Assembly: GCA_027623195.1 (NCBI GenBank)
Contig: JAQBUT010000014.1
Location: 21,881 to 85,880, forward strand
Length of the DNA: 64,000 nucleotides
Direction of reading: 5' to 3'
From: Chloroflexota bacterium
GTDB taxonomy: Bacteria > Chloroflexota > Dehalococcoidia > Lucifugimonadales > JADFKI01
Below the pieces are notes generated by a model. That model was not told the DNA's origin. It made no database searches and saw nothing but the letters and a program-made list of their open reading frames with translations. Each line of letters opens with the position of its first letter. The stretch's first letter is position 1. The position numbers and the translations under genes were made by a program. Shown here piece by piece: positions 39,408 through 62,795 of this stretch.

Positions 39408-39538
39408 CTCTTGTGGAAACCTCCTGCTCGGCAATGCAGCGTTCTGCTGCGCCCATAGATTATAAATGTGTGCCGCATCCGCTTTCAAGCATTTCACGCA
39501 TGGGCATCCATTTTCTGGCTTCAGTCTACACCTTTATC

Positions 39539-40816
39539 TTATCGGATTACACCCTTTTGTCTTAGTTCATTTAACTTCTGATCGTCGTAACCCAAACCTC
39601 GGAGGATATCTACGGTGCTCTCTCCAAGCGCAGGGGAGGCGCTCTGCGCTTCCAGAGGCGTTTCGCTCATCTTAACCAGCGGCCCTACCATAGTTACCTT
39701 GCCCGCTTGGGTGTGCTCCAGCTCCACAACAAGACCATTAGAGACCACCTGCTCGTCAGCCAGTAACTCTTCCACAAAACGAACGGGACCCGCAGGCACA
39801 CCAGCTGCGTCCAATAACTCTAGCCAATCCGAGACGGTCTTTTTCAGAAATATTTCTTCCGCCTGGCCCACAAGGCGCAAATTGAAGGCCTGAGTCTCCT
39901 CGCTGTACATGTCATATCCTGGCTGAAATCTGATGTCATCCAGGCCGAGTACGTCTACCATTCGCTTACGCAGTGGGTCGCTAAGGCAACCTACGGCCAG
40001 GACGCCGTCCTTGGCCTGATATGTCCTGTAGTAGGCATTTTCCGCCCGACGACGCCCGGGGTCGAAGGTATCCAGGTAGTGCTGATGGACATCCTTATAG
40101 GGTGCGCCAGCTTCTCGCAAAAGTGCCAGGGACTCCAAAAAATCGCCCGTACGCTCCCGATCAACCATGTCCACCTGCGTAAAGCGCATAGCTTGGAGGG
40201 CCAACGCGGTACCCAATAAGGTTGTCTCTACCTTCTGGCCTTTGCCCGTCTGCTCTCGGCTGTAAAGGGCAGCGCAGACCGACCAGGCGATGGTAATGCC
40301 CGTCGAAAAGTCCGCCAGAGGCGTAGACTGCACCGGCTGCGGCACGCCATTGGCAATCTTGTCCTCTGCGGCCATCAACCCCGTCATGGCCTGGGCAATG
40401 ATGTCGTAGCCTGGGCGGTCACTATGAGGGCCATGCCTGCCGAAGGCCGTGGTTTCGCAGTAGATAAGAGCAGGGTTAATTTTGGATAAGGTCTCGTAGT
40501 CGATTCCCAGGTTGTTGGGCACATCCGGGCGAGAATTAATTATCACCACATCCATATCGGGAACCATCTTATAGACGATTTCCCTGGCCTCAGGCTTAGT
40601 TAAGTCCAGCGTTAGACTCTTCTTGCCGCGATTGATCCCAATAAAAGTCTTGCTTTCGTTAGGCATGAAGGGCTGCGCGAACCTCCAGGGCTCACCCCAG
40701 GGCGGCTCCACTTTAATTACGTCCGCCCCCATGTCGCTTAGCAGCATGCCGCTAAATGGGCCGGCAATGATTTCCGTGAACTCCAGCACCTTTACGCCAT
40801 CCAGTGGTCCCGGCAT
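39539..40816 (-). CDS. family III CoA-transferase
   Basis: IAGPF..LSDMGA, NRGKKSL, PGYD, LADFSTG. Confidence 0.92.
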   Translation of the reverse strand: MPGPLDGVKVLEFTEIIAGPFSGMLLSDMGADVIKVEPPWGEPWRFAQPFMPNESKTFIGINRGKKSLTLDLTKPEAREIVYKMVPDMDVVIINSRPDVPNNLGIDYETLSKINPALIYCETTAFGRHGPHSDRPGYDIIAQAMTGLMAAEDKIANGVPQPVQSTPLADFSTGITIAWSVCAALYSREQTGKGQKVETTLLGTALALQAMRFTQVDMVDRERTGDFLESLALLREAGAPYKDVHQHYLDTFDPGRRRAENAYYRTYQAKDGVLAVGCLSDPLRKRMVDVLGLDDIRFQPGYDMYSEETQAFNLRLVGQAEEIFLKKTVSDWLELLDAAGVPAGPVRFVEELLADEQVVSNGLVVELEHTQAGKVTMVGPLVKMSETPLEAQSASPALGESTVDILRGLGYDDQKLNELRQKGVIR

Positions 40817-41194
40817 GCCATTTCCTCTATTTATGTATCACAAGGCGGTTTTACACAGCCCCATAAAGCCGCGCACAGCCTAGTCTGAAGTAGTATGCAG
40901 CCTCTCACACCTATGTCAAGCGCATAGGAAGGGCTGCCATGGAAGGGCCTTTTACCAGTCTACGAACACTAGAACGTCTGATTTTTAAGGCCAATCGCCA
41001 TTAGGTTACGAGGCACAAAGACCCTTATCTACCCATTCCACACCAGTCTCATTCCCCAGGCCAACGTGGGAGTATTCCAGGCGAAGTATTATACCTTCAG
41101 GATGCCTTCCACGCCTTTACCATACGGCGGCATTACATCGGGTACTTAGTTGAGACTACAGCTTGAGGTACATTCCACCCCAATTACGTGCTGT

Positions 41195-41241
41195 TCACAA
41201 ACCTCTCACAAACCCGTTGCACACGAAATGGCTGGTACTTT
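41195..41241 (+). promoter_or_regulatory. direct-repeat operator and putative extended -10 upstream of the peptide gene
   Basis: TCACAAACC at 41195 and 41206 (11-bp period), then TGgTACTTT. Confidence 0.5.
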
Positions 41242-41351
41242 ACTCGAAACGAGCTTGAAAACACGGCGACTGAGCCAGTAATCAGGCTTCAAATTCGGTT
41301 CCAATTGCCACCCCGAATTAACGAGGTGAGTAAATTAGGAGGAGGAAAGAA

Positions 41352-41597
41352 ATGACACAGTGGTTGAAGAAGGCGAAAATCACGGTTGCGACCGGAGCAA
41401 TGGCTCTGGTTCTAGTGGGCACTGCTGCACAGGGCATCGTTCAGGCGGGCTCTGCTGAAGCTAGCCTTGGTCACGATGCCGAACTGGTCAGCGGCACGGT
41501 GTACCACGATCAGGACGCCAAGCGTGGCGAAAGGTTCAAGAAAAGCGACTCCGACAGCACTTTTGGGGTTGGTGGACGACGCTGGAGCAGCGACTAG
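41352..41597 (+). CDS. small secreted peptide precursor (81 aa), putative signalling peptide
   Basis: Strong AGGAGGAGG RBS; Sec-type signal (KKAK, hydrophobic core, VQA/AEA); polar tail ending GGRRWSSD. Confidence 0.8.
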   Translation: MTQWLKKAKITVATGAMALVLVGTAAQGIVQAGSAEASLGHDAELVSGTVYHDQDAKRGERFKKSDSDSTFGVGGRRWSSD

Positions 41598-41616
41598 TCC
41601 TTAGGGATTAAAGCAA

Positions 41617-41664
41617 TAGGTCACTCATCAGCCGCCGCATTGTCGTGGGCTGATGAGTGACCTA
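41617..41664. terminator. 17-bp perfect hairpin between the peptide and kinase genes
   Basis: TAGGTCACTCATCAGCC / GGCTGATGAGTGACCTA; no U-tract on the + strand. Confidence 0.65.
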
Positions 41665-41717
41665 AAGAATCAATCGTAAAACGACTCATCATAAATTCTG
41701 TTTATCGGTTATTTAAG

Positions 41718-43223
41718 TTGAACAAGCAATTTAGAACATGGACATATATATCGGCAGTGGTTGCGGTCTCCGCATCCATTGTGGGTATCACGGCCACGAT
41801 CTGGCCCTTGTCGGAAAGCAGCACGCCTATCTGGATGCTGCTTATGCTGACAGGCCTGGTCACCCTGGCCGGCCGATTCCCAATCCAACTGTCCATACAG
41901 GCAGACGCCTCTTTGCGCGTTGTGCCTATGTTCATGGCTGTACTGCTTGTTAGCCCTGCGGAGGCAGCCCTCGTAGGCGCTGCAGGTGCAATAGTCTCTG
42001 AAGTGCTTCTGAGGACGCCCGTTCGGGCCGTCCTATTCAACTCCGGCGTCGACACCATAGCGACTGGCGCCGCAGCTATAGTTTTCATCAGTCTACGGCC
42101 AGAGGCGGCAGCGCTGTCTCTTACGGCTGGCCAGATGCTGGCCGCCGGTGCCGCAGCCCTAACTATTTTGACTTTGAACCTGGTTCTGGTGGACATCATG
42201 GCAATCGTCCGCCGCGGCTGGGAGTTCCTGAACCACTGGAAGTTCAACTACTACCTGGTTGAGGCCCCTCAAGAGGCCGGTTTCCTTACCATTGGTCTTA
42301 TTGGGGCCCTGCTTACGGCACAAGCCCCCTGGGCGCCGATAATAGTGCTTATACCTGCCGTGCTCACATTCTTTGGCTTCAAATTCGTGGTGTCTGAGGC
42401 GGCGGAGAAAACCCGCTTGGCTTCGGACCTACAGGCCAGCCTGAATGAGCTGAAAGAGGTCCAGGCCCACCTTATCAATTCCGCCAAGATGGCTTCTGTT
42501 GGTACGCTTGCAACAGGTATAGCGCACGAGATTAACAATCCTGTGTTTGCCATATCCGGTAGGGCAGACCTGCTGATAAAGGGCGCAGATAAGCACCTGG
42601 CCTCGGAAAAGGCGCTGGAATATATATACAACGTCAAGGAAATGGCAACCCGCATATCCAAGATAACCACGCATCTTATGGAGTATGCGCAGCCTGGCGA
42701 GGACATGAATGAGATCATCCTCAGTGAGGTTATGGAGTCTGCCGTTACTCTGATGGGCAAGAATGCCAAGTCGGTTCGCATAATCCGCGAATACGAAGAC
42801 GCGCCTATCATTAAGGGCGTGCAGGCACAGATGCAGCAAATATTCCTGAATCTACTGTCCAACGGCGCCGAGGCCGTGCCCGACTGGGGCAGCCTAACCA
42901 TAGGCTGTAAGGTCGAAAACGACACAGCCGTGGCATACGTCAAGGACGACGGCATAGGCATGAAGTCTGAGCTCCTCGAGCGAATCTTCGAGCCTTTCGT
43001 GGGCAGTAAGGACGTCAACAACAGGGTTGGCCTTGGCTTGGGTCTTTACACCTGCCACAAGATTGTGACCGCTCACGAGGGTGAGATCACCATCGACAGC
43101 GAGTCAGGCAAGGGAACGACCGTTACCATAAGGTTGCCTCTATATGGCACCGCCATTGTGCCGGACGATGACGTGGACGCAGACGATCTGGACATGCCAA
43201 TGGCAGTTGGCATGCAGGACTAA
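41718..43223 (+). CDS. membrane sensor histidine kinase with multi-TM N-terminal input domain
   Basis: About 230-aa hydrophobic N-domain; H-box AHEINNP, N-box NLLSNG, DDGIG, IFEPF, GLGLGL. Confidence 0.93.
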   Translation: MNKQFRTWTYISAVVAVSASIVGITATIWPLSESSTPIWMLLMLTGLVTLAGRFPIQLSIQADASLRVVPMFMAVLLVSPAEAALVGAAGAIVSEVLLRTPVRAVLFNSGVDTIATGAAAIVFISLRPEAAALSLTAGQMLAAGAAALTILTLNLVLVDIMAIVRRGWEFLNHWKFNYYLVEAPQEAGFLTIGLIGALLTAQAPWAPIIVLIPAVLTFFGFKFVVSEAAEKTRLASDLQASLNELKEVQAHLINSAKMASVGTLATGIAHEINNPVFAISGRADLLIKGADKHLASEKALEYIYNVKEMATRISKITTHLMEYAQPGEDMNEIILSEVMESAVTLMGKNAKSVRIIREYEDAPIIKGVQAQMQQIFLNLLSNGAEAVPDWGSLTIGCKVENDTAVAYVKDDGIGMKSELLERIFEPFVGSKDVNNRVGLGLGLYTCHKIVTAHEGEITIDSESGKGTTVTIRLPLYGTAIVPDDDVDADDLDMPMAVGMQD

Positions 43224-43324
43224 CGTCGGCCTTCACTCACGTTTCACCCCCGCAGACCGAGTTTAATTGCCTTTTAGGAGCGGTGCGCCGGCAAAGTGCA
43301 TCAATATCCTCCTGAAAGGCCATT

Positions 43325-43747
43325 ATGTCCCAAACCGTGCTGATAGTCGAAGACGAGTACATCACCCGAGACATCCTGACCACATGGCTGGAAGAGGCCG
43401 GGTATAACACCTGCTCGGCGGCCAACGGCCTGGAAGCCCTCCTGGAGGCCAGAGAAAAATCTCCCGATCTCGTGGTTGCGGACATAATGATGCCCCAAAT
43501 GGATGGTTATGAGCTCTGCAAAATGATGCGTCAGCTGTCCAGCACCCCATTCATGTTCCTAACAGGATTCGGGTCTGAAAACCATAAGAGACAGGGGTTC
43601 CGCATGGGAGCCAATGAATTCCTGGTCAAACCTGTTGATATGGATGTCTTCCTACAGCGGGTTTCCGAGCTGCTCAGCAAGTCTTACCCATCATCCCCTC
43701 CCACTATCGAGCCGTTCCGCCGCACAAGCCCTGAAGAAGCTGAATAA
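43325..43747 (+). CDS. single-domain response regulator (receiver)
   Basis: VEDE, ADIMMP, FLTG, VKP; no output domain. Confidence 0.9.
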   Translation: MSQTVLIVEDEYITRDILTTWLEEAGYNTCSAANGLEALLEAREKSPDLVVADIMMPQMDGYELCKMMRQLSSTPFMFLTGFGSENHKRQGFRMGANEFLVKPVDMDVFLQRVSELLSKSYPSSPPTIEPFRRTSPEEAE

Positions 43748-43906
43748 GGTTAAATTTACCGGACTACCCTTTGAGGCCCTTTTCACCGTTTCTCGACGGG
43801 GGGCCAGCACCCACCGGCCACTGATAGTCTTCGCGTGGAATAGAGGGCATGCACTCACAGTACTCAAATACTGCCCTGTTAGTATGAAATCACACCAAAA
43901 GACCAT

Positions 43907-44359
43907 GTGAGCGGTGAACGTGCGCAGATGACAATAGGCTTCGCAGAACCAAAAACTACATCAGCCCTGCAAGAGCAGACTCAAAAGACCCCTTTGGAGC
44001 ACCCCTCCATACTGGTTGTGGAAGACGAAGAGGGAGTACGAGACCTGCTGGTCCAGCTTCTCCAAATGGGAGGCTACAGCGCCATAGCTGTCGACAACGG
44101 CCTGGATGCTATAGCTAGTTTCAAAGAGGAGCATTACGACCTTGTGTTCACAGACTATCGAATGCCCGGCATATCCGGCGCAGAGGTAACCCGCGCGATA
44201 AAGGCTTTCGATTCCCGAATCCCAGTAGTTGTCGTCACGGGATGGGACCCGGAAACCTTTAAGGACGAGCTTGAGTGCGCAGGTGCGGACCATATCCTCC
44301 AGAAGCCATTCGACATGGACGATTTGCTCGAGCTGGTTTCCAGCCTGACATCCCGCTAA
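43907..44359 (+). CDS. single-domain response regulator (receiver)
   Basis: VEDE, TDYRMP, VTG, QKPF; start uncertain. Confidence 0.9.
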   Translation: MSGERAQMTIGFAEPKTTSALQEQTQKTPLEHPSILVVEDEEGVRDLLVQLLQMGGYSAIAVDNGLDAIASFKEEHYDLVFTDYRMPGISGAEVTRAIKAFDSRIPVVVVTGWDPETFKDELECAGADHILQKPFDMDDLLELVSSLTSR

Positions 44360-44393
44360 TATCAACCAAACGCAGGAGCTTCCTCGTTTGACC

Positions 44394-44431
44394 AGGCCAG
44401 GACTACTAAATTAGTTCTGGCCTATTTTTTT
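44394..44431 (+). terminator. intrinsic terminator closing the peptide/HK/RR locus
   Basis: AGGCCAGGACTA / TAGTTCTGGCCT followed by a T7 tract. Confidence 0.8.
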
Positions 44432-44668
44432 GCCTTGGTCTTACAGCCTCATAGCGTACGGATGTCGCTTTCCCAACGCACATTGCCCCAATTGACAGGC
44501 TAGAATGGCCCTGCTAGCTTACCGTCTGAATTTGCACGTCGACGCCCTCTACGTCAACAAGCGGCTATCCATCCAAGACATGAACAAGAAAATACCCAGG
44601 CTGCATGTATTTATTATTGGGAACAAACGTGCTATAAATACCATCAATAACCGAGGCGAGGAGTCTGA

Positions 44669-45424
44669 ATGAAAAAGGTTCTGATTACTGGAATGAGCGG
44701 CCTGATTGGGGGTCTTCTAGGAAGACACCTGCAGAATGTCGGCGGATACGAGATAACGGCCCTTAACAGAAGCAAGGTCGAGGGCGTCAATTGTGTTCAG
44801 GCCGACATCGCCGATCTTGAAGCCATCAAGCACGCATTCCAGGGACAAGATGTGGTCGTGCATCTAGCGGCATACCTGGGCAACGACGATTGGCCGGGGC
44901 AGCTCAACGGCAACATAGTCGGTATGTACAACGTATTCGAGGCGGCCCGGCTTGGAGGCGTTAAGCGCGTAGTATTCGCCAGCAGCGGCAACGCTATTCG
45001 AGGTTACGAGAATGTCGAGCCCTACAAGGCACTGGTGGAAGGTCGTTACAATGACTTGCCTGCCGTTATCCCGATGGTTACGCATACAATGATTCGGCCT
45101 GAGGGCATTTACGGCGCTGCGAAGGTCTTCGGTGAGGCCTTGGCCAGCTACTACTCCGACGCCTACGGCATATCGTTTCTCAACGTGCGAATCGGCCGTG
45201 TCAGGGCCGACAATACTCCAACGGATGTCCGCGAGCGCTCGATTTACCTTAGCCACGACGACGCTGTGCAGATATTGCACAAGTGCATCGACGCACCCGA
45301 CGATCTGATGTACGACACATTCTTGGCGACCTCCGACAACAAGTACACCTACCGGGACCTGACCCATCCTAGAGACGTGCTGGGTTTCGTCCCCAAGGAC
45401 TCTGCCGACTCTTATTTCGAATAG
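44669..45424 (+). CDS. NAD(P)-dependent oxidoreductase (extended SDR, uronate-dehydrogenase-like)
   Basis: TGMSGLIG, HLAA, FASS, YGAAK, RIG. Confidence 0.85.
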   Translation: MKKVLITGMSGLIGGLLGRHLQNVGGYEITALNRSKVEGVNCVQADIADLEAIKHAFQGQDVVVHLAAYLGNDDWPGQLNGNIVGMYNVFEAARLGGVKRVVFASSGNAIRGYENVEPYKALVEGRYNDLPAVIPMVTHTMIRPEGIYGAAKVFGEALASYYSDAYGISFLNVRIGRVRADNTPTDVRERSIYLSHDDAVQILHKCIDAPDDLMYDTFLATSDNKYTYRDLTHPRDVLGFVPKDSADSYFE

Positions 45425-45451
45425 CCAGACATTGCCGAAAGGGTCCCTTAA

Positions 45452-46558
45452 ATGAAAAGCATAACCATAGATAGGTCCAAACGCCTGAAGGACGAGCCTG
45501 AGAAGGGGCACAATCGCTGGCACCCAGACATCACGCCGATTCTAGAGGTAGATCCTGGAGAAGAAGTGCTGCTGGAAACCCGCGACGCCTCGGACGGCCA
45601 GATAAAGCCGGGTATGTTGCCTGCCGATCTGGAGGGACTGGCCTCCAAGGTGGCTCATCCGTTGACGGGCCCTGTTTACATAAAGGGTGCAGCGCCGGGC
45701 GACCTGCTAGAGATCGAGTACGTAGACATCACGCCACAACCATATGGCTGGACTCGCATTCGGCCAGGCGCAGGCTTCCTGAGAGACCTTTACACCCAGC
45801 CGTACGTCGCCCACTGGACGATCTTAGACGGATGGGCAACATCGCCTCAGATACCAGGCGTCCGGATACCAAATGGCTCCTTTATGGGGACTGCCGGACT
45901 AGCGCCGTCTCACCAGCAGATGGAGGAATGGCGACTGCGCGAGGCGAGGGTGGCCGACGAAGGCGGCATAGCTGCTCCACCCGATCCGGAGGACGCCGTG
46001 CCCCAAAGCGAACCCATAGCGAGCCAGGGCCTGCGCACGCTGCCGCCGCGTGAGAACTGCGGCAACGCGGATGTAAAGCAACTCACCACCGGCTCTCGAT
46101 TATTCGTGCCCGTAGGCGTCGAGGGCGCGCTTTACTCTGCCGGAGACGGCCATTTCGCCCAGGGCGACTCCGAGTGCTGTATTACGGCTATCGAGATGGG
46201 GGCGACTTGCACCGTAAGGTTCACATTACATAAGGGCGAGGCTGCTGAAAAGAACATCAAGTTTCCGCGATTTTCCCATCCAGGCTACTTTCTACCGCCT
46301 GAGTGGGCAGCGCCACGAAACTTTATCGCAACTATGGGCATGCCAATAAGGGAAGACGGCGTTAACGAAGGCGAGAACCTGACTCTGGCCGCCCGCAGCG
46401 CAATCATCAATATGATCCAACTGTTGGGTGAGCGCGGATTCAGTCCAGAACAGGCTTACGTTATATGCAGCGTGGCCGTGGACCTCAAGATAAGCAACAT
46501 TGTGGACCTGCCCAACGTAACCGTCTCCGCTTTCCTGCCCGAGGATATTTTTCAGTAA
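45452..46558 (+). CDS. acetamidase/formamidase family protein
   Basis: HNRWHPD, HPLTGPV, GNAD, GDGHFAQGDSE, AIE. Confidence 0.92.
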   Translation: MKSITIDRSKRLKDEPEKGHNRWHPDITPILEVDPGEEVLLETRDASDGQIKPGMLPADLEGLASKVAHPLTGPVYIKGAAPGDLLEIEYVDITPQPYGWTRIRPGAGFLRDLYTQPYVAHWTILDGWATSPQIPGVRIPNGSFMGTAGLAPSHQQMEEWRLREARVADEGGIAAPPDPEDAVPQSEPIASQGLRTLPPRENCGNADVKQLTTGSRLFVPVGVEGALYSAGDGHFAQGDSECCITAIEMGATCTVRFTLHKGEAAEKNIKFPRFSHPGYFLPPEWAAPRNFIATMGMPIREDGVNEGENLTLAARSAIINMIQLLGERGFSPEQAYVICSVAVDLKISNIVDLPNVTVSAFLPEDIFQ

Positions 46559-47765: not shown

Positions 47766-48785
47766 TTATTGGACCAGGAACGGCGCCATGTCTTCCGGCG
47801 AGAACAGGAACTGGCTCCAGTAAGGCGCAGCCATAAGGCCAGCGGCCTCCTGCCATACCTCAGCCAATGGCGTTCCGGCGTGGCCCTGGTACTCGTCCGA
47901 CAGGCTACTCATCAGCTTATCCAGGTCGGTTCGGAAATCGCCAACGCCTGAGTAGGACCGAGACCGAATCCGCTCCAACATGGTGCGAGCTTCGTTTCCC
48001 CCGTCACTGGAAACATTCGCAGCGAACCCCCTCGATAGTAAATCCAAGTCGCCATTGAATTGCGTGACTGAGTCCATGCCGTGCGGTTCGGCGTAAGCAG
48101 CCGCGTCTTGCGGAGGAGCTACCGAAGGCACGTACCACTTGAGCAGTTCCAGGTAGAAGTCATGCATGTCCAGCGCAGCGTGCCGTCCAGTGGCCTCCCG
48201 CGCCTCGGTGATGTTGCCCACGTCTATGACATTGATGCACGCGGTGGAGGGATCGAAGAAAATATTCTGGGGCCGCAGGTCCAGTAACACCACACCCTGC
48301 GAATGGAACGCCTCGGCGACCGCCAAAATCTCCCCCGCGATGGTGAAGGCGCCCTTTTCAGGATGAGCGTTGACTGGATGCAGCGCGAAAAGGTTCTGAG
48401 GCAACCCAATGGGGTGACGCTTGATGCCGTCCAGCGCGCTGCCCACCAGCGGCACCCCCACGGCCCTGGCGTCGACTAGCACCGTGTATCGCTCGTCTAT
48501 GCCGTCGCCGAAGTAGCCCGCGTGCGACTCCTGGGCAGTGTACGCAAGCATTTGCGCAACGTGAGGCAGTCCCTCTCCCAGACGGTCCTTAATGCCAATA
48601 GCCTCCGCAGTCCGCCTCTCCACGGCCCGGTGCTGGCCTCGCTCCAGCAAAGTCGGGTGGGGCCGCTTTACAACCACGGACGCACCAGTCTGCGTATCCG
48701 TAGCGGCGAACACTTCTAGATCAGCGCCCTCCCCGAGGATGCCGCCCAGTTCGAAGCGTTCCAGGTCTTTGGAGTCTATTTGCAT
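47766..48785 (-). CDS. atypical protein-kinase-fold protein
   Basis: LGEGA Gly-loop, VVVK, LLDLRPQNI catalytic loop, IDVG in place of DFG. Confidence 0.7.
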   Translation of the reverse strand: MQIDSKDLERFELGGILGEGADLEVFAATDTQTGASVVVKRPHPTLLERGQHRAVERRTAEAIGIKDRLGEGLPHVAQMLAYTAQESHAGYFGDGIDERYTVLVDARAVGVPLVGSALDGIKRHPIGLPQNLFALHPVNAHPEKGAFTIAGEILAVAEAFHSQGVVLLDLRPQNIFFDPSTACINVIDVGNITEAREATGRHAALDMHDFYLELLKWYVPSVAPPQDAAAYAEPHGMDSVTQFNGDLDLLSRGFAANVSSDGGNEARTMLERIRSRSYSGVGDFRTDLDKLMSSLSDEYQGHAGTPLAEVWQEAAGLMAAPYWSQFLFSPEDMAPFLVQ

Positions 48786-48843: not shown

Positions 48844-49542
48844 TTATTGACAATTATTGTGCATCTTCCATAGCTCTGGGTCGTGGCCCGCCGGAACCTT
48901 TGCACATGGGTCGTCACCCGAAGCATAGCCTCTTAACGAATTGTATTGGACAACCTGAGATGGAGTCAGGACGTCTATCATAGACAGGTGCGTGCTCAGA
49001 TGAATTACTCTTAGACGGCCATAAAGGTCACCGCTCTCCAAGGCCATATCTCTTAGTGATTCTTCTGTGACAATGCCACTCGAAAAAGCATTATCAATGG
49101 ATTCTTCAAGCTCAACTATAAGCTCTCCAATTCCAATCGCTTCGGTACGCATACCTTCGTAAAGGTGTTCAACCTGTTCAAGTTGCTCGCCAGTCGTATG
49201 AAACTCTCCAGACTCTACTGCGTCCAATACGTGACGTGGGCCCGGATAACCGTTCAATTCCGCAGGCTTGGCCAATCCACCAAAAGGAGTTCCTGCGCCG
49301 TGAAGCAGGCCCTCGATATCCTGGGGTGACAAGAATTTAATCTTTCTGGTCTCTTGCCCTACGTACGGAGACTGTATAGAACTCGTGGATGTTGGTGGAG
49401 GGACATACGTTGGTTGGCTATTAGTTGACGAATCTTCCAGAACTTTAGTGGTCGCTGGTTCCTCTCTGGAACAAGCGACAGCCAGGAGGGCAATTAGGGC
49501 AACGAAAAATATCGTTATCCGACTCGAATGATGAAAATTCAA
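48844..49542 (-). CDS. lipoprotein, helical Spy/CpxP-like domain
   Basis: Lipobox LAVAC; KPAELNGYPGPRHVL motif, LTPSQ..Y..LRGY; C-terminal Cys/His. Confidence 0.7.
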   Translation of the reverse strand: MNFHHSSRITIFFVALIALLAVACSREEPATTKVLEDSSTNSQPTYVPPPTSTSSIQSPYVGQETRKIKFLSPQDIEGLLHGAGTPFGGLAKPAELNGYPGPRHVLDAVESGEFHTTGEQLEQVEHLYEGMRTEAIGIGELIVELEESIDNAFSSGIVTEESLRDMALESGDLYGRLRVIHLSTHLSMIDVLTPSQVVQYNSLRGYASGDDPCAKVPAGHDPELWKMHNNCQ

Positions 49543-60650: not shown

Positions 60651-62795
60651 ATGAAGGTATTGCCGTTCCGCATAGTATTGCCACTGGTCATCGCTATATT
60701 CGCGGTCGCCTGTAGCGCTCAGCCTGCCGCTCCGGCGCCTGATCCTGTGGTGATAGAAAGGGAAGTCATCAAGGAGGTACCGGTCGATAGGGTCGTAACT
60801 GTTGAGAAAGAGGTAATAAGGGAAGTAATCAAAGAGGTCATAGTCGACTCCGGTGCCAAGGCTCCGAGGTCTCCCCTGATTGGAGAGATTGAAGGCGTAA
60901 CGGTTCTCAGGGACTTCACACCCTCGAAATATAACGAAGCTCCCGAGTTGGCTCAGTTAGTTAGCGAGGGCAAACTGCCACCCGTCGAAGAGCGTGTCGG
61001 TCCCGAGCCGCTGGTTTTGAGGCCTATTCATGAGATCGGCAAGTACGGTGGAGTGTGGCGACGCGGATTTATCGGCCCTAATGACACTGCGAACGCCATA
61101 CGGGCGGTCAACCACGACAGGCTTTTGTTCTGGGACCCCACCGGCACAGAAATTGTGCCGCATATGGCAAAGGGTTGGGAAGTTAGCGACGACGGCAAGA
61201 CCACAACTATCTTCCTTCGCAAAGGGCACAAGTGGTCCGACGGAGCGCCCTTTACTGCGGATGATTTCATATTCTGGTACGAGGAAATGTACCTGAACGA
61301 TGACCTTAACCCCACAAAAAGGGCTGAGTTGACAGTCGCCGGCGAGCAGGTGCTATTCAAGAAAGTGGACGAAACAACGGTTCAGCTCATTTCCAAGGAG
61401 CCTTACTACGTTCTCCCCACGTACCTCTCCAGCACGTCGGCTCTAAGCGGTCACGCCAGGTGGGGAAACCTGGCTCTCGGAGGTTTCGCACCTGCCCACT
61501 ACCTGAAGCAGTTCCATCCGGATTACGCTGAAGGCGGGCTAGAGGCCATCGAAAAAATGGCTGACGACGCGGGCTTCGCAAACTGGATAGACTTCTTCAA
61601 ACAGCGGAACAGCGTATTCCTCAACACGGAACTGCCGACAATAGCCGCCTGGATGCTTGAAAAGCCCATCACCGATACTGTCTGGGTAATGACGCGAAAT
61701 CCTTATAGCATCTGGATGGATGAGGCGGGAAACCAGTTGCCTTACATGGATAAGGTGCGGATGACTTTGGGTGAAGACCTGGAAGTCCTGAATCTGCGGG
61801 CGATTTCCGGTGAGTTCGACCAGCAGGCCCGACACATGGACCTGCAGAAGCTGCCGGTAATGCTTGAGAACGCTGCGGCCGGCAACTACACGGTTCGTCT
61901 AGACCCCACGCGACACGGAGGGGACGCCGTTCTTTGTCCCAACCTGAACTACGACTCCGATCCTGAAATCGCAAAGTGGCTGACGAACACGGACTTCCGC
62001 AGGGCTCTATCCCTAGGGGTTGACCGCACCCAGATCAATGAGGGTCTGTTCCTAGGGCTTGGCATTCCAGGGTCTATAGCCCCCGGTGACGACACAATTT
62101 ACAGCCCTGGGCCCGACTCTGTGTACCGCAACCTGTGGTCCACCCACGATCCCGAGACGGCCAACCAGATGCTGGATGGACTGGGTCTAACCGAAAAAGA
62201 CGCTGAAGGGTTCCGCATGAGGACCGACGGCAAGGGCCGGCTGGTCATTGAGGTGCAAACCTACCTCTCCTTCATGAATTTCACCGAGCTGGGCGAGATG
62301 GTCAAGGAGCACTGGAGGGAAATCGGAATAGACCTGGACGTGAAGGAGATGGAGCGCAGCCTTGCCACCCAGCGGCGCACTTCCAATCAACACCAGTTCC
62401 ACGTTGAGGTTACCTGGGGCGCTGAAGATATGTACGGTCATCCGATCGGCTTCTTCCCGGACGGTAGTGCCTCTTGCTTCGGACCGGAGTATGGCAAGTG
62501 GTTCCAGAGTAACGGCCAGGTTGGCAGGGAGCCTCCGCCCGAGCTGGCCAAGGTCTTCGACCTTTACCGGAAAGGCATGACGCTGCCGGACAAGGCGCGC
62601 CAGGAAACGGGTAAGGAGCTTTGGAGAATCGTCCTGGACGAAGTGTACGGGATAGGCACAGTGGGCCAAAGCCCGGCAATACAGGGCGTCCGGATTGTCA
62701 ACAACGACCTGGGTAACACGGCAGCCAGGCACATCAATAGCGCTGCCAAGGATAATCCAGCCTCGTCTCACCCGGAACAGTACTACTTCAAGTAA
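60651..62795 (+). CDS. family 5 ABC solute-binding lipoprotein
   Basis: Lipobox AVAC, V/E/K-rich repeat, GKLPPVEERV, LRKGHKWSDGAPFTADD, RNPY, FRRALS; AGGAGG RBS. Confidence 0.93.
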   Translation: MKVLPFRIVLPLVIAIFAVACSAQPAAPAPDPVVIEREVIKEVPVDRVVTVEKEVIREVIKEVIVDSGAKAPRSPLIGEIEGVTVLRDFTPSKYNEAPELAQLVSEGKLPPVEERVGPEPLVLRPIHEIGKYGGVWRRGFIGPNDTANAIRAVNHDRLLFWDPTGTEIVPHMAKGWEVSDDGKTTTIFLRKGHKWSDGAPFTADDFIFWYEEMYLNDDLNPTKRAELTVAGEQVLFKKVDETTVQLISKEPYYVLPTYLSSTSALSGHARWGNLALGGFAPAHYLKQFHPDYAEGGLEAIEKMADDAGFANWIDFFKQRNSVFLNTELPTIAAWMLEKPITDTVWVMTRNPYSIWMDEAGNQLPYMDKVRMTLGEDLEVLNLRAISGEFDQQARHMDLQKLPVMLENAAAGNYTVRLDPTRHGGDAVLCPNLNYDSDPEIAKWLTNTDFRRALSLGVDRTQINEGLFLGLGIPGSIAPGDDTIYSPGPDSVYRNLWSTHDPETANQMLDGLGLTEKDAEGFRMRTDGKGRLVIEVQTYLSFMNFTELGEMVKEHWREIGIDLDVKEMERSLATQRRTSNQHQFHVEVTWGAEDMYGHPIGFFPDGSASCFGPEYGKWFQSNGQVGREPPPELAKVFDLYRKGMTLPDKARQETGKELWRIVLDEVYGIGTVGQSPAIQGVRIVNNDLGNTAARHINSAAKDNPASSHPEQYYFK

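Follow-up and report, generated by a model that had tools for sequence, protein, structure and literature searches.

A conserved peptide–sensor module with a MASE9-like histidine kinase in an uncultured Dehalococcoidia bacterium

In the agr and comCDE systems, a small peptide gene lies beside the gene of a multi-pass membrane kinase, and allelic peptides track the sensor domain of that kinase. Here, we describe a locus from Dehalococcoidia (Chloroflexota) in which an 81-aa open reading frame (ORF) lies directly upstream of the gene for a membrane histidine kinase. It was found in a 64,000-nt stretch (the window, to which all coordinates refer unless a locus is named) of contig JAQBUT010000014.1, assembly GCA_027623195.1. 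The genome carrying the window is denoted G000, and related genomes, peptide clusters, and loci are denoted G0xx, P0xxx, and L0xx, respectively. RRNPP propeptides, in the portion of the source drawn on here, are 50–120 aa long, are exported by Sec, and end in a pheromone of 5–10 residues that is imported by the oligopeptide permease (Opp) (PMC11343458). The MASE9 domain (PF20972) is described, in the cited part of its defining paper, as having eight membrane segments, two of them short, and a proposed intramembrane ligand site for which no ligand is named; fusions to HD-GYP and GGDEF-EAL outputs are listed (bioRxiv 10.1101/2021.11.05.467447). The strings "peptid" and "neighbo" do not occur in the main text of that paper. 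The S-components of transporters and the 5TMR-LYT kinases (BtsS, YpdA, and KinB) have, according to the part of the source used here, a cavity near the outside and a helix H6 that ends in the cytoplasm (PMC11109136); "MASE" does not occur in its main text.

The locus is a conserved peptide–sensor module. Three aspects appear to be new: a basic tail that is present in single copy and has three alleles, the beta protein as the partner that the peptide most likely replaced, and a sensor pocket of the S-component type that is probably inverted. Our literature search found no paper on the pairing of peptides with MASE9 sensors and none on peptide signalling in uncultured Dehalococcoidia. The initial annotation had reported an 81-aa ORF with a strong ribosome-binding site, a Sec-type signal, and KR and KK sites, a histidine kinase with a membrane-embedded input domain directly downstream, and two receiver-only proteins with a closing terminator; all of these were found again (Table 1), the Sec signal as a prediction and the input domain as an eight-helix model.

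The peptide gene and its counterparts in related genomes

The predicted propeptide has a basic N-region (K6, K7, and K9), a hydrophobic stretch at approximately residues 10–23, and Ala-Glu-Ala at residues 35–37; the signal peptide was called by eye, from hydropathy and from conservation of the cleavage site. Besides K57-R58, a second dibasic site is present at K63-K64. Orthologous peptide genes precede the kinase gene in G001, G002, and G004 as in G000, and both genes were confined to these same 4 of the 27 family genomes. In three pairwise comparisons, the ratio of nonsynonymous to synonymous substitution rates (dN/dS) of the peptide was 0.21, 0.39, and 0.38; that of the kinase was lower (0.094 for G000/G002). 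Because orthologues precede the kinase in three further genomes and dN/dS is 0.21–0.39, the ORF goes beyond chance, and we concluded that it is a real gene under purifying selection.

A profile search yielded 42 peptide clusters, many of which are near-identical and hence not independent samples. Four were left out of the tail count: P0013 and P0206 are truncated, and P0207 and P0210 have foreign C-terminal halves that are probably assembly artefacts. Among the remaining 38, the Ala-x-Ala cleavage site and D-x-[KR]-R were each present in 37, and K57-R58 was invariant in 16/16. The dibasic site is followed by a variable linker of 12 to 32 residues and a tail of seven residues (one cluster has one extra residue), which opens with Gly and Arg in 38/38 clusters and has a second Arg in 36/38. 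The tail occurs in three alleles: Trp at position −4, e.g. GRRWSSD (7/38); Phe at −2, GRRGRFD (11); and Trp at −2, GRRSRWG (20). Thus, the conserved C-terminus after a variable middle that the initial annotation expected was found, whereas its GRRW or G-x-x-W motif was limited to seven clusters. With regard to an agr-type thiolactone or lactone ring, the peptide has no Cys and the Ser residues of the tail are not conserved. The peptide profile gave no match in 400 other genomes sampled from the class, matches in the Atlas scored only 0.80–0.81, which is within the chance range, and no relative was found in viral contigs.

Within the order, 34 of 401 genomes carry the sensor. We examined 42 sensor loci, two of which begin at a contig end, leaving 40 informative loci. 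A gene for a secreted protein lies directly upstream of the sensor in 34 of these, in line with the predicted adjacency of a secreted ORF to kinase homologues. The kind of partner differed from that proposed: MASE9 sensors had been suggested to accompany short G-x-x-W peptides, but the usual partner is a folded, secreted protein of about 150 aa, here termed the beta protein (29/40; two genes broken, several in tandem). A short peptide occupies the position in four loci and a subtilase with Trp-containing five-residue repeats in one (L010, whose subtilase tail was a seed of the beta profile; the locus was counted as subtilase). A reverse test recovered 24 beta genes in 20 of 301 class genomes, and 21 of these had a sensor directly behind them (1/21 was in the training set); one of the others lies at a contig end and two have no sensor within 1.5 kb. 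Sensor outputs at beta loci include plain and hybrid kinases and HD-type domains.

The beta family (L011:2278–2733, − strand, and 53 relatives) is unannotated, was modelled with a predicted local distance difference test score (pLDDT) of 90, and occurs in up to two or three tandem copies. No Pfam family was common to more than one of 31 members, no fold match exceeded Z 4.9, no usable Atlas match was obtained, and G000 carries no copy. One column of the alignment is Trp in 52/54 and Phe in 2/54 proteins, and this aromatic residue is the fourth after a small-x-Ala/Gly site in 48/54; the neighbouring registers gave counts of 2, 6, and 1, and the register two positions further out gave 27.

The peptide-paired sensors form one clade (support 97) nested within the beta-paired sensors. 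The locus G078:C72, which has a beta gene, has three genes in common with G000 (for a CoA-transferase, receiver 2, and the truncated receiver 1) and one in common with G004, the upstream SDR gene (64% identical). Only the signal regions of the peptide and the beta protein align, and the mature parts are without homology. The nested clade and the shared neighbours in G078 suggest that the short peptide most likely took over the site of the beta gene.

Several loci showed variations on this arrangement. G078 also encodes a 67-aa signal-bearing peptide (L067:1148–1351, + strand), an independent short-peptide candidate, whose last eight residues match the N-terminal Gly-x-x-Trp pattern of the three beta proteins behind it. 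In L010, the subtilase gene (72–1307, + strand; approximately ten repeats) is followed by a stand-alone 261-aa MASE9 protein without an output domain. In four genomes (L012, L013, L016, and L030), the gene directly upstream of the module encodes an oligopeptide-type ABC permease; two of the four have no partner gene. A 63-aa signal-bearing ORF precedes a broken beta gene in G028 (L005:3019–3210 region, − strand) and has no aromatic tail in its present frame. In G242 (L044 and L037), sensor genes are duplicated and partly broken, with insertion-sequence remnants between the beta gene and the sensor.

Fold and orientation of the sensor

The kinase has a HisKA domain at residues 262–326 and HATPase_c at 368–475. 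Its hydrophobic residues 1–231 gave no match in Pfam or NCBIfam; in particular, this sensor does not match PF20972 and lies below the Pfam model. A sensor profile collected 6136 representatives at E ≤ 0.001, and 18 of 38 aligned sensor homologues matched PF20972 at E ≤ 0.01, several of them above the Pfam cut-off. Judged by these matches, the sensor is a divergent relative of MASE9, placed via its homologues, as the initial annotation had supposed. Eight segments, two of them short, with a conserved aromatic residue and Asn characterize MASE9, and the conserved sensor residues F107, N108, N154, and W174 agree with this pattern.

The AlphaFold2 model of the sensor, built from 144 sequences, reached pLDDT 94 and a predicted template modelling score of 0.90, with eight membrane helices (residues 3–28, 38–53, 68–77, 80–97, 102–126, 137–166, 176–202, and 207–230). 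Its best fold match was 4hzu_S (Z 15.2; root-mean-square deviation 3.6 Å over 162 residues). Fourteen chains of the S-component type scored Z 11.0–15.2 and spanned model residues 4/30–206, and the next unrelated entries were below 7. Foldseek also ranked the S-component family first, only at E 2.3e-3. When solved structures were searched by sequence, the sensor profile returned 0 matches. These results predicted that the sensor has the S-component fold known from transporters of the energy-coupling factor (ECF) type.

The positive-inside rule was then applied to the model. Of the two faces, the one that bears both termini and loops L1, L3, and L5 has 10.6 Lys/Arg in each sequence versus 1.4 on the opposite face, and it is the richer one in 144/144 sequences. 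All seven conserved polar columns lie in the L1/L3/L5 half and none in the other, and an eighth helix after H6 leads into the kinase. Because the modelled pocket face bears the positive charges, the S-component core is likely inverted, with its pocket opening to the cytoplasm. The outer loops are short, at 5–11 residues, and the outer face includes the conserved residues W205 and P80. PF07694 (5TMR-LYT) gave no match for the sensor, which has eight helices instead of seven.

Matching between peptide and sensor, and how the peptide may act

Within the sensor, R67, D112, and D159 co-occur in 10 of the 144 sequences, which are exactly the peptide clade; the partner gene is known for eight of the ten. 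The charges of these residues would complement those of a tail rich in Arg that ends in a free carboxylate. Furthermore, sensor domains group by tail allele in trees (86/87; 97/96), but kinase cores do not. Sensor domains of Trp-early carriers are 86–89% identical to each other and 74–80% identical to those of Phe carriers; the kinase cores are not so sorted. This allele matching resembles pherotype cassettes.

A ligand–receptor pairing of some kind between the peptide and the sensor is probable. As to its form, we tentatively favour, with slightly less than even confidence, a Phr-like route in which the propeptide is exported, clipped, and re-imported to the inward-facing pocket of the adjacent kinase. 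Sec would export the propeptide, with a cut after residue 37, and general proteases would trim it at or near the dibasic sites, freeing the seven-residue basic tail. The tail would re-enter through an oligopeptide-family transporter (an oligopeptide permease) and bind the cytoplasm-facing pocket of the MASE9-like kinase, which would then alter the phosphorylation of both receiver-only proteins. We infer the export, the cleavage site, the import, the binding, and the on/off direction of the switch. Family-5 solute-binding proteins are matched 13 times in the G000 genome, and subtilases twice. One of the former matches lies at 61149–62444 (+ strand), approximately 17 kb downstream of the module.

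More broadly, MASE9 sensors might be upside-down transporter-fold receptors that read short aromatic-bearing peptides cytoplasmically. These would come from interchangeable secreted donors (the new N-terminus of beta proteins, the Trp repeats of subtilases, or a dedicated propeptide), and the family in Dehalococcoidia would be a true pheromone system with three specificity groups, a hybrid of an agr-type kinase and Phr-type re-import. We regard this generalization as speculative and, taken whole, rather unlikely.

Several observations weigh against the re-import route. No partner gene was found upstream of the sensor in 6/40 loci, and the usual partners are folded beta proteins that could not be imported whole; moreover, their Trp opens a predicted strand in the model and may have a structural role. 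The charge complement comes from one clade, and thus from one evolutionary event, at pocket positions picked by eye. In the kinase-core tree, a clade of the Trp allele was rejected only marginally (approximately unbiased test, p-AU 0.0495) and that of the Phe allele was not rejected (p-AU 0.45), and 4/6 peptide–kinase pairs in this test, the four being of this genus, were joined only through longest contigs of equal length. The allele matching itself could be linkage, as adjacent DNA recombines together, and of the ten sensor positions diagnostic for the allele, five are on the outer face. Nothing specific follows from the presence of Opp-type systems, which are common. Finally, the G001 peptide is intact beside a broken kinase.

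In G001 (L003 and L053–L056), the kinase gene contains stops and frameshifts, and the peptide, promoter blocks, and both receivers are intact. A metagenome scan returned four loci (contigs), all from one G001 population with the broken kinase.

Binding on the outer face, as in agr/com, is the strongest of the competing explanations, and we consider it unlikely. In such a pair, the exported peptide or, in relatives, the new N-terminus of the beta protein would bind the outer loops or slip between helices, with the inward pocket serving as a signalling element and not as the binding site. The beta partners, which are secreted, folded, and Cys-bearing and have Trp fourth after the predicted cleavage site, are best suited to a role outside; the conserved W205 and P80 and half of the allele-diagnostic positions are also found there. 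Nevertheless, the outer half offers no conserved polar column and only short loops, and the charges specific to the peptide clade (R67, D112, and D159) sit in the inner half. A pocket that probably opens to the cytoplasm agrees poorly with the agr/com picture.

Somewhat less probable still is that the peptide has its own job (surface, antimicrobial, or binding) as a co-transcribed accessory or output and makes no contact with the kinase. The survival of the G001 peptide beside a broken kinase would follow naturally, as would the lack of homology between mature peptide and beta protein and the existence of sensors without a partner gene. However, three unrelated secreted kinds (beta protein, short peptide, and Trp-repeat subtilase) hold the same slot, 21/24 independently found beta genes are followed by the sensor with either kinase or HD-type outputs, and the 67-aa peptide of G078 ends in the N-terminal pattern of the beta proteins.

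We give little credence to a cell-autonomous monitor, in which the kinase reads its own unexported precursor when Sec or signal peptidase falters, or fragments from envelope proteolysis. An inward pocket would meet such a precursor directly, the strong ribosome-binding site and the hairpin suggest a large excess of peptide, and no dedicated processor or exporter was found. Against this, the beta-partner motif is exposed only once signal peptidase has cut, and, more weakly, the way in which tail alleles follow the sensor domain resembles kin specificity. Decay of an ancestral beta gene to leave the ORF is largely refuted and very improbable: the ORF occupies the beta slot in a syntenic locus and is of low complexity, but its dN/dS is well below 1, the tail is intact with an invariant start in 38 clusters, and the ribosome-binding site and promoter blocks are conserved.

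Other features of the locus and comparison with known systems

The features of the module are listed in Table 1. The three-block motif is a single site in G000 at up to four mismatches, and a promoter-like role is presumed. OmpR-type 11-bp direct repeats upstream were also considered and rejected; their spacing varies among genomes, and both patterns were without any match. A search of Rfam with 39500–45500 gave no match at E ≤ 1, so the leader was no longer read as a riboswitch. Hairpins of unrelated sequence lie at the same place as the G000 hairpin in G002, G001, and G004 (z −2.2, −1.2, and −5.5, respectively), and two short control spacers from beta-protein loci have none; the hairpin is likely a stabiliser or a partial stop that favours the peptide mRNA.

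Receiver 1 shares 45–47% identity with the full-length regulators in G174 and G122 and lacks their winged helix; by this alignment, it descends from an OmpR-type regulator minus that domain. Without a DNA-binding domain, it would therefore act via protein contact or phosphate relay and not by direct control of transcription. Orthologues of receiver 2 come after receiver 1 in G001, G002, G004, and G078. A possible extended −10 element at 43870–43890 (+ strand), seen by eye in the 180-nt gap before receiver 2, may be part of its own promoter. Elsewhere in the window, 48844–49542 (− strand) encodes a 232-aa probable lipoprotein with no Pfam match, and 47766–48785 (− strand) a 339-aa protein whose sole match, to a protein kinase, is partial and below threshold.

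Table 1. Positions of the module features in the 64,000-nt window.
Feature	Coordinates	Strand	Evidence or remark
Three-block promoter-like DNA motif, 8/5/7 bases, fixed spacing	41217..41251	+	Blocks and spacing identical in 4/4 peptide loci (G000, G001, G002, G004)
Strong ribosome-binding site of the peptide gene	41337..41345	+	AGGAGGAGG; kept in 4 loci
81-aa propeptide gene	41352..41597	+	ORF, orthologues, dN/dS 0.21–0.39
Predicted Sec signal peptide, residues 1–37	41352..41462	+	Hydropathy; cleavage after Ala-Glu-Ala; site in 37/38 clusters
Dibasic pair K57-R58, candidate processing site	41520..41525	+	Conservation; cleavage inferred
C-terminal heptapeptide GRRWSSD, candidate ligand, Trp-early allele	41574..41594	+	Gly-Arg at −7/−6 in 38/38
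Perfect 17-bp RNA hairpin without a U-tract, in the gap separating the peptide and kinase genes	41617..41664	+	z −6.0
501-aa histidine kinase, TTG start	41718..43223	+	H270, N, G1, F, and G2 boxes intact
Predicted eight-helix MASE9-like sensor, S-component fold	41718..42410	+	Candidate pocket residues R67, N108, D112, N154, D159, E182, E186
Receiver-only protein 1	43325..43747	+	Truncated relative of OmpR-type regulators at related loci
Receiver-only protein 2	43928..44359	+	ATG start 43928 preferred over GTG 43907
Intrinsic terminator-like stem and T run	44394..44433 (stem 44394–44423)	+	Sequence

The cited part of the MASE9 paper gives no known ligand, and the present locus supplies three natural candidates of seven residues together with receptor alleles that match them; the ligand question can therefore be tested with synthetic peptides. 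If the inverted pocket does bind the tails, the locus would encode a membrane kinase that detects, from inside, a peptide that has been imported, and would be a candidate case of peptide signalling among uncultured Dehalococcoidia.

Compared with agr and comCDE, the likeness is on the receptor side: the peptide gene adjoins a multi-pass kinase, and tail alleles group with the sensor domain. In contrast, the peptide here has no Cys, the kinase is of the HisKA type, and the receivers lack DNA-binding domains; unlike comCDE and other double-glycine peptides, the leader is of the Sec type. AgrB, Peptidase_C39 (PF03412), and LytTR gave no match in the 87% complete genome, and AgrB and LytTR are not at the locus, which bears out the predicted absence of an AgrB/ComAB-type processor or exporter. 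The locus belongs neither to these systems nor to the RRNPP group.

The metal transporters CbiM and NikM, group I S-components, have an N-terminus of their own that enters the pocket, and the alignment of the sensor model with them (4m5c and 5x3x) covers H0 and the core (model residues 4–205). With S-components and 5TMR-LYT kinases, as far as the part of the source used describes them, the model shares a six-helix core and a central cavity to whose lining L1/H2, H4, and H6 contribute, with an extra N-terminal H0; unlike in those proteins, the core would be inverted, given the charge bias and an additional eighth helix. The hallmarks of 5TMR-LYT (seven helices, H6 leading into the cytoplasm, and an outward pocket with the NXR motif) were not found in the sensor. 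With MASE9, it shares eight segments, two of them short, and the conserved aromatic residue and Asn, but it falls below the Pfam model. In its sequence layout, the locus resembles the RRNPP and Rap-Phr systems of Bacillota, in the portion of the source drawn on: a propeptide gene beside a receptor gene, a short C-terminal peptide, no dedicated exporter, and a proposed re-import. It differs from them in that the receptor is an eight-helix membrane histidine kinase with no adjacent cytoplasmic TPR receptor, and in that the host class is Dehalococcoidia.

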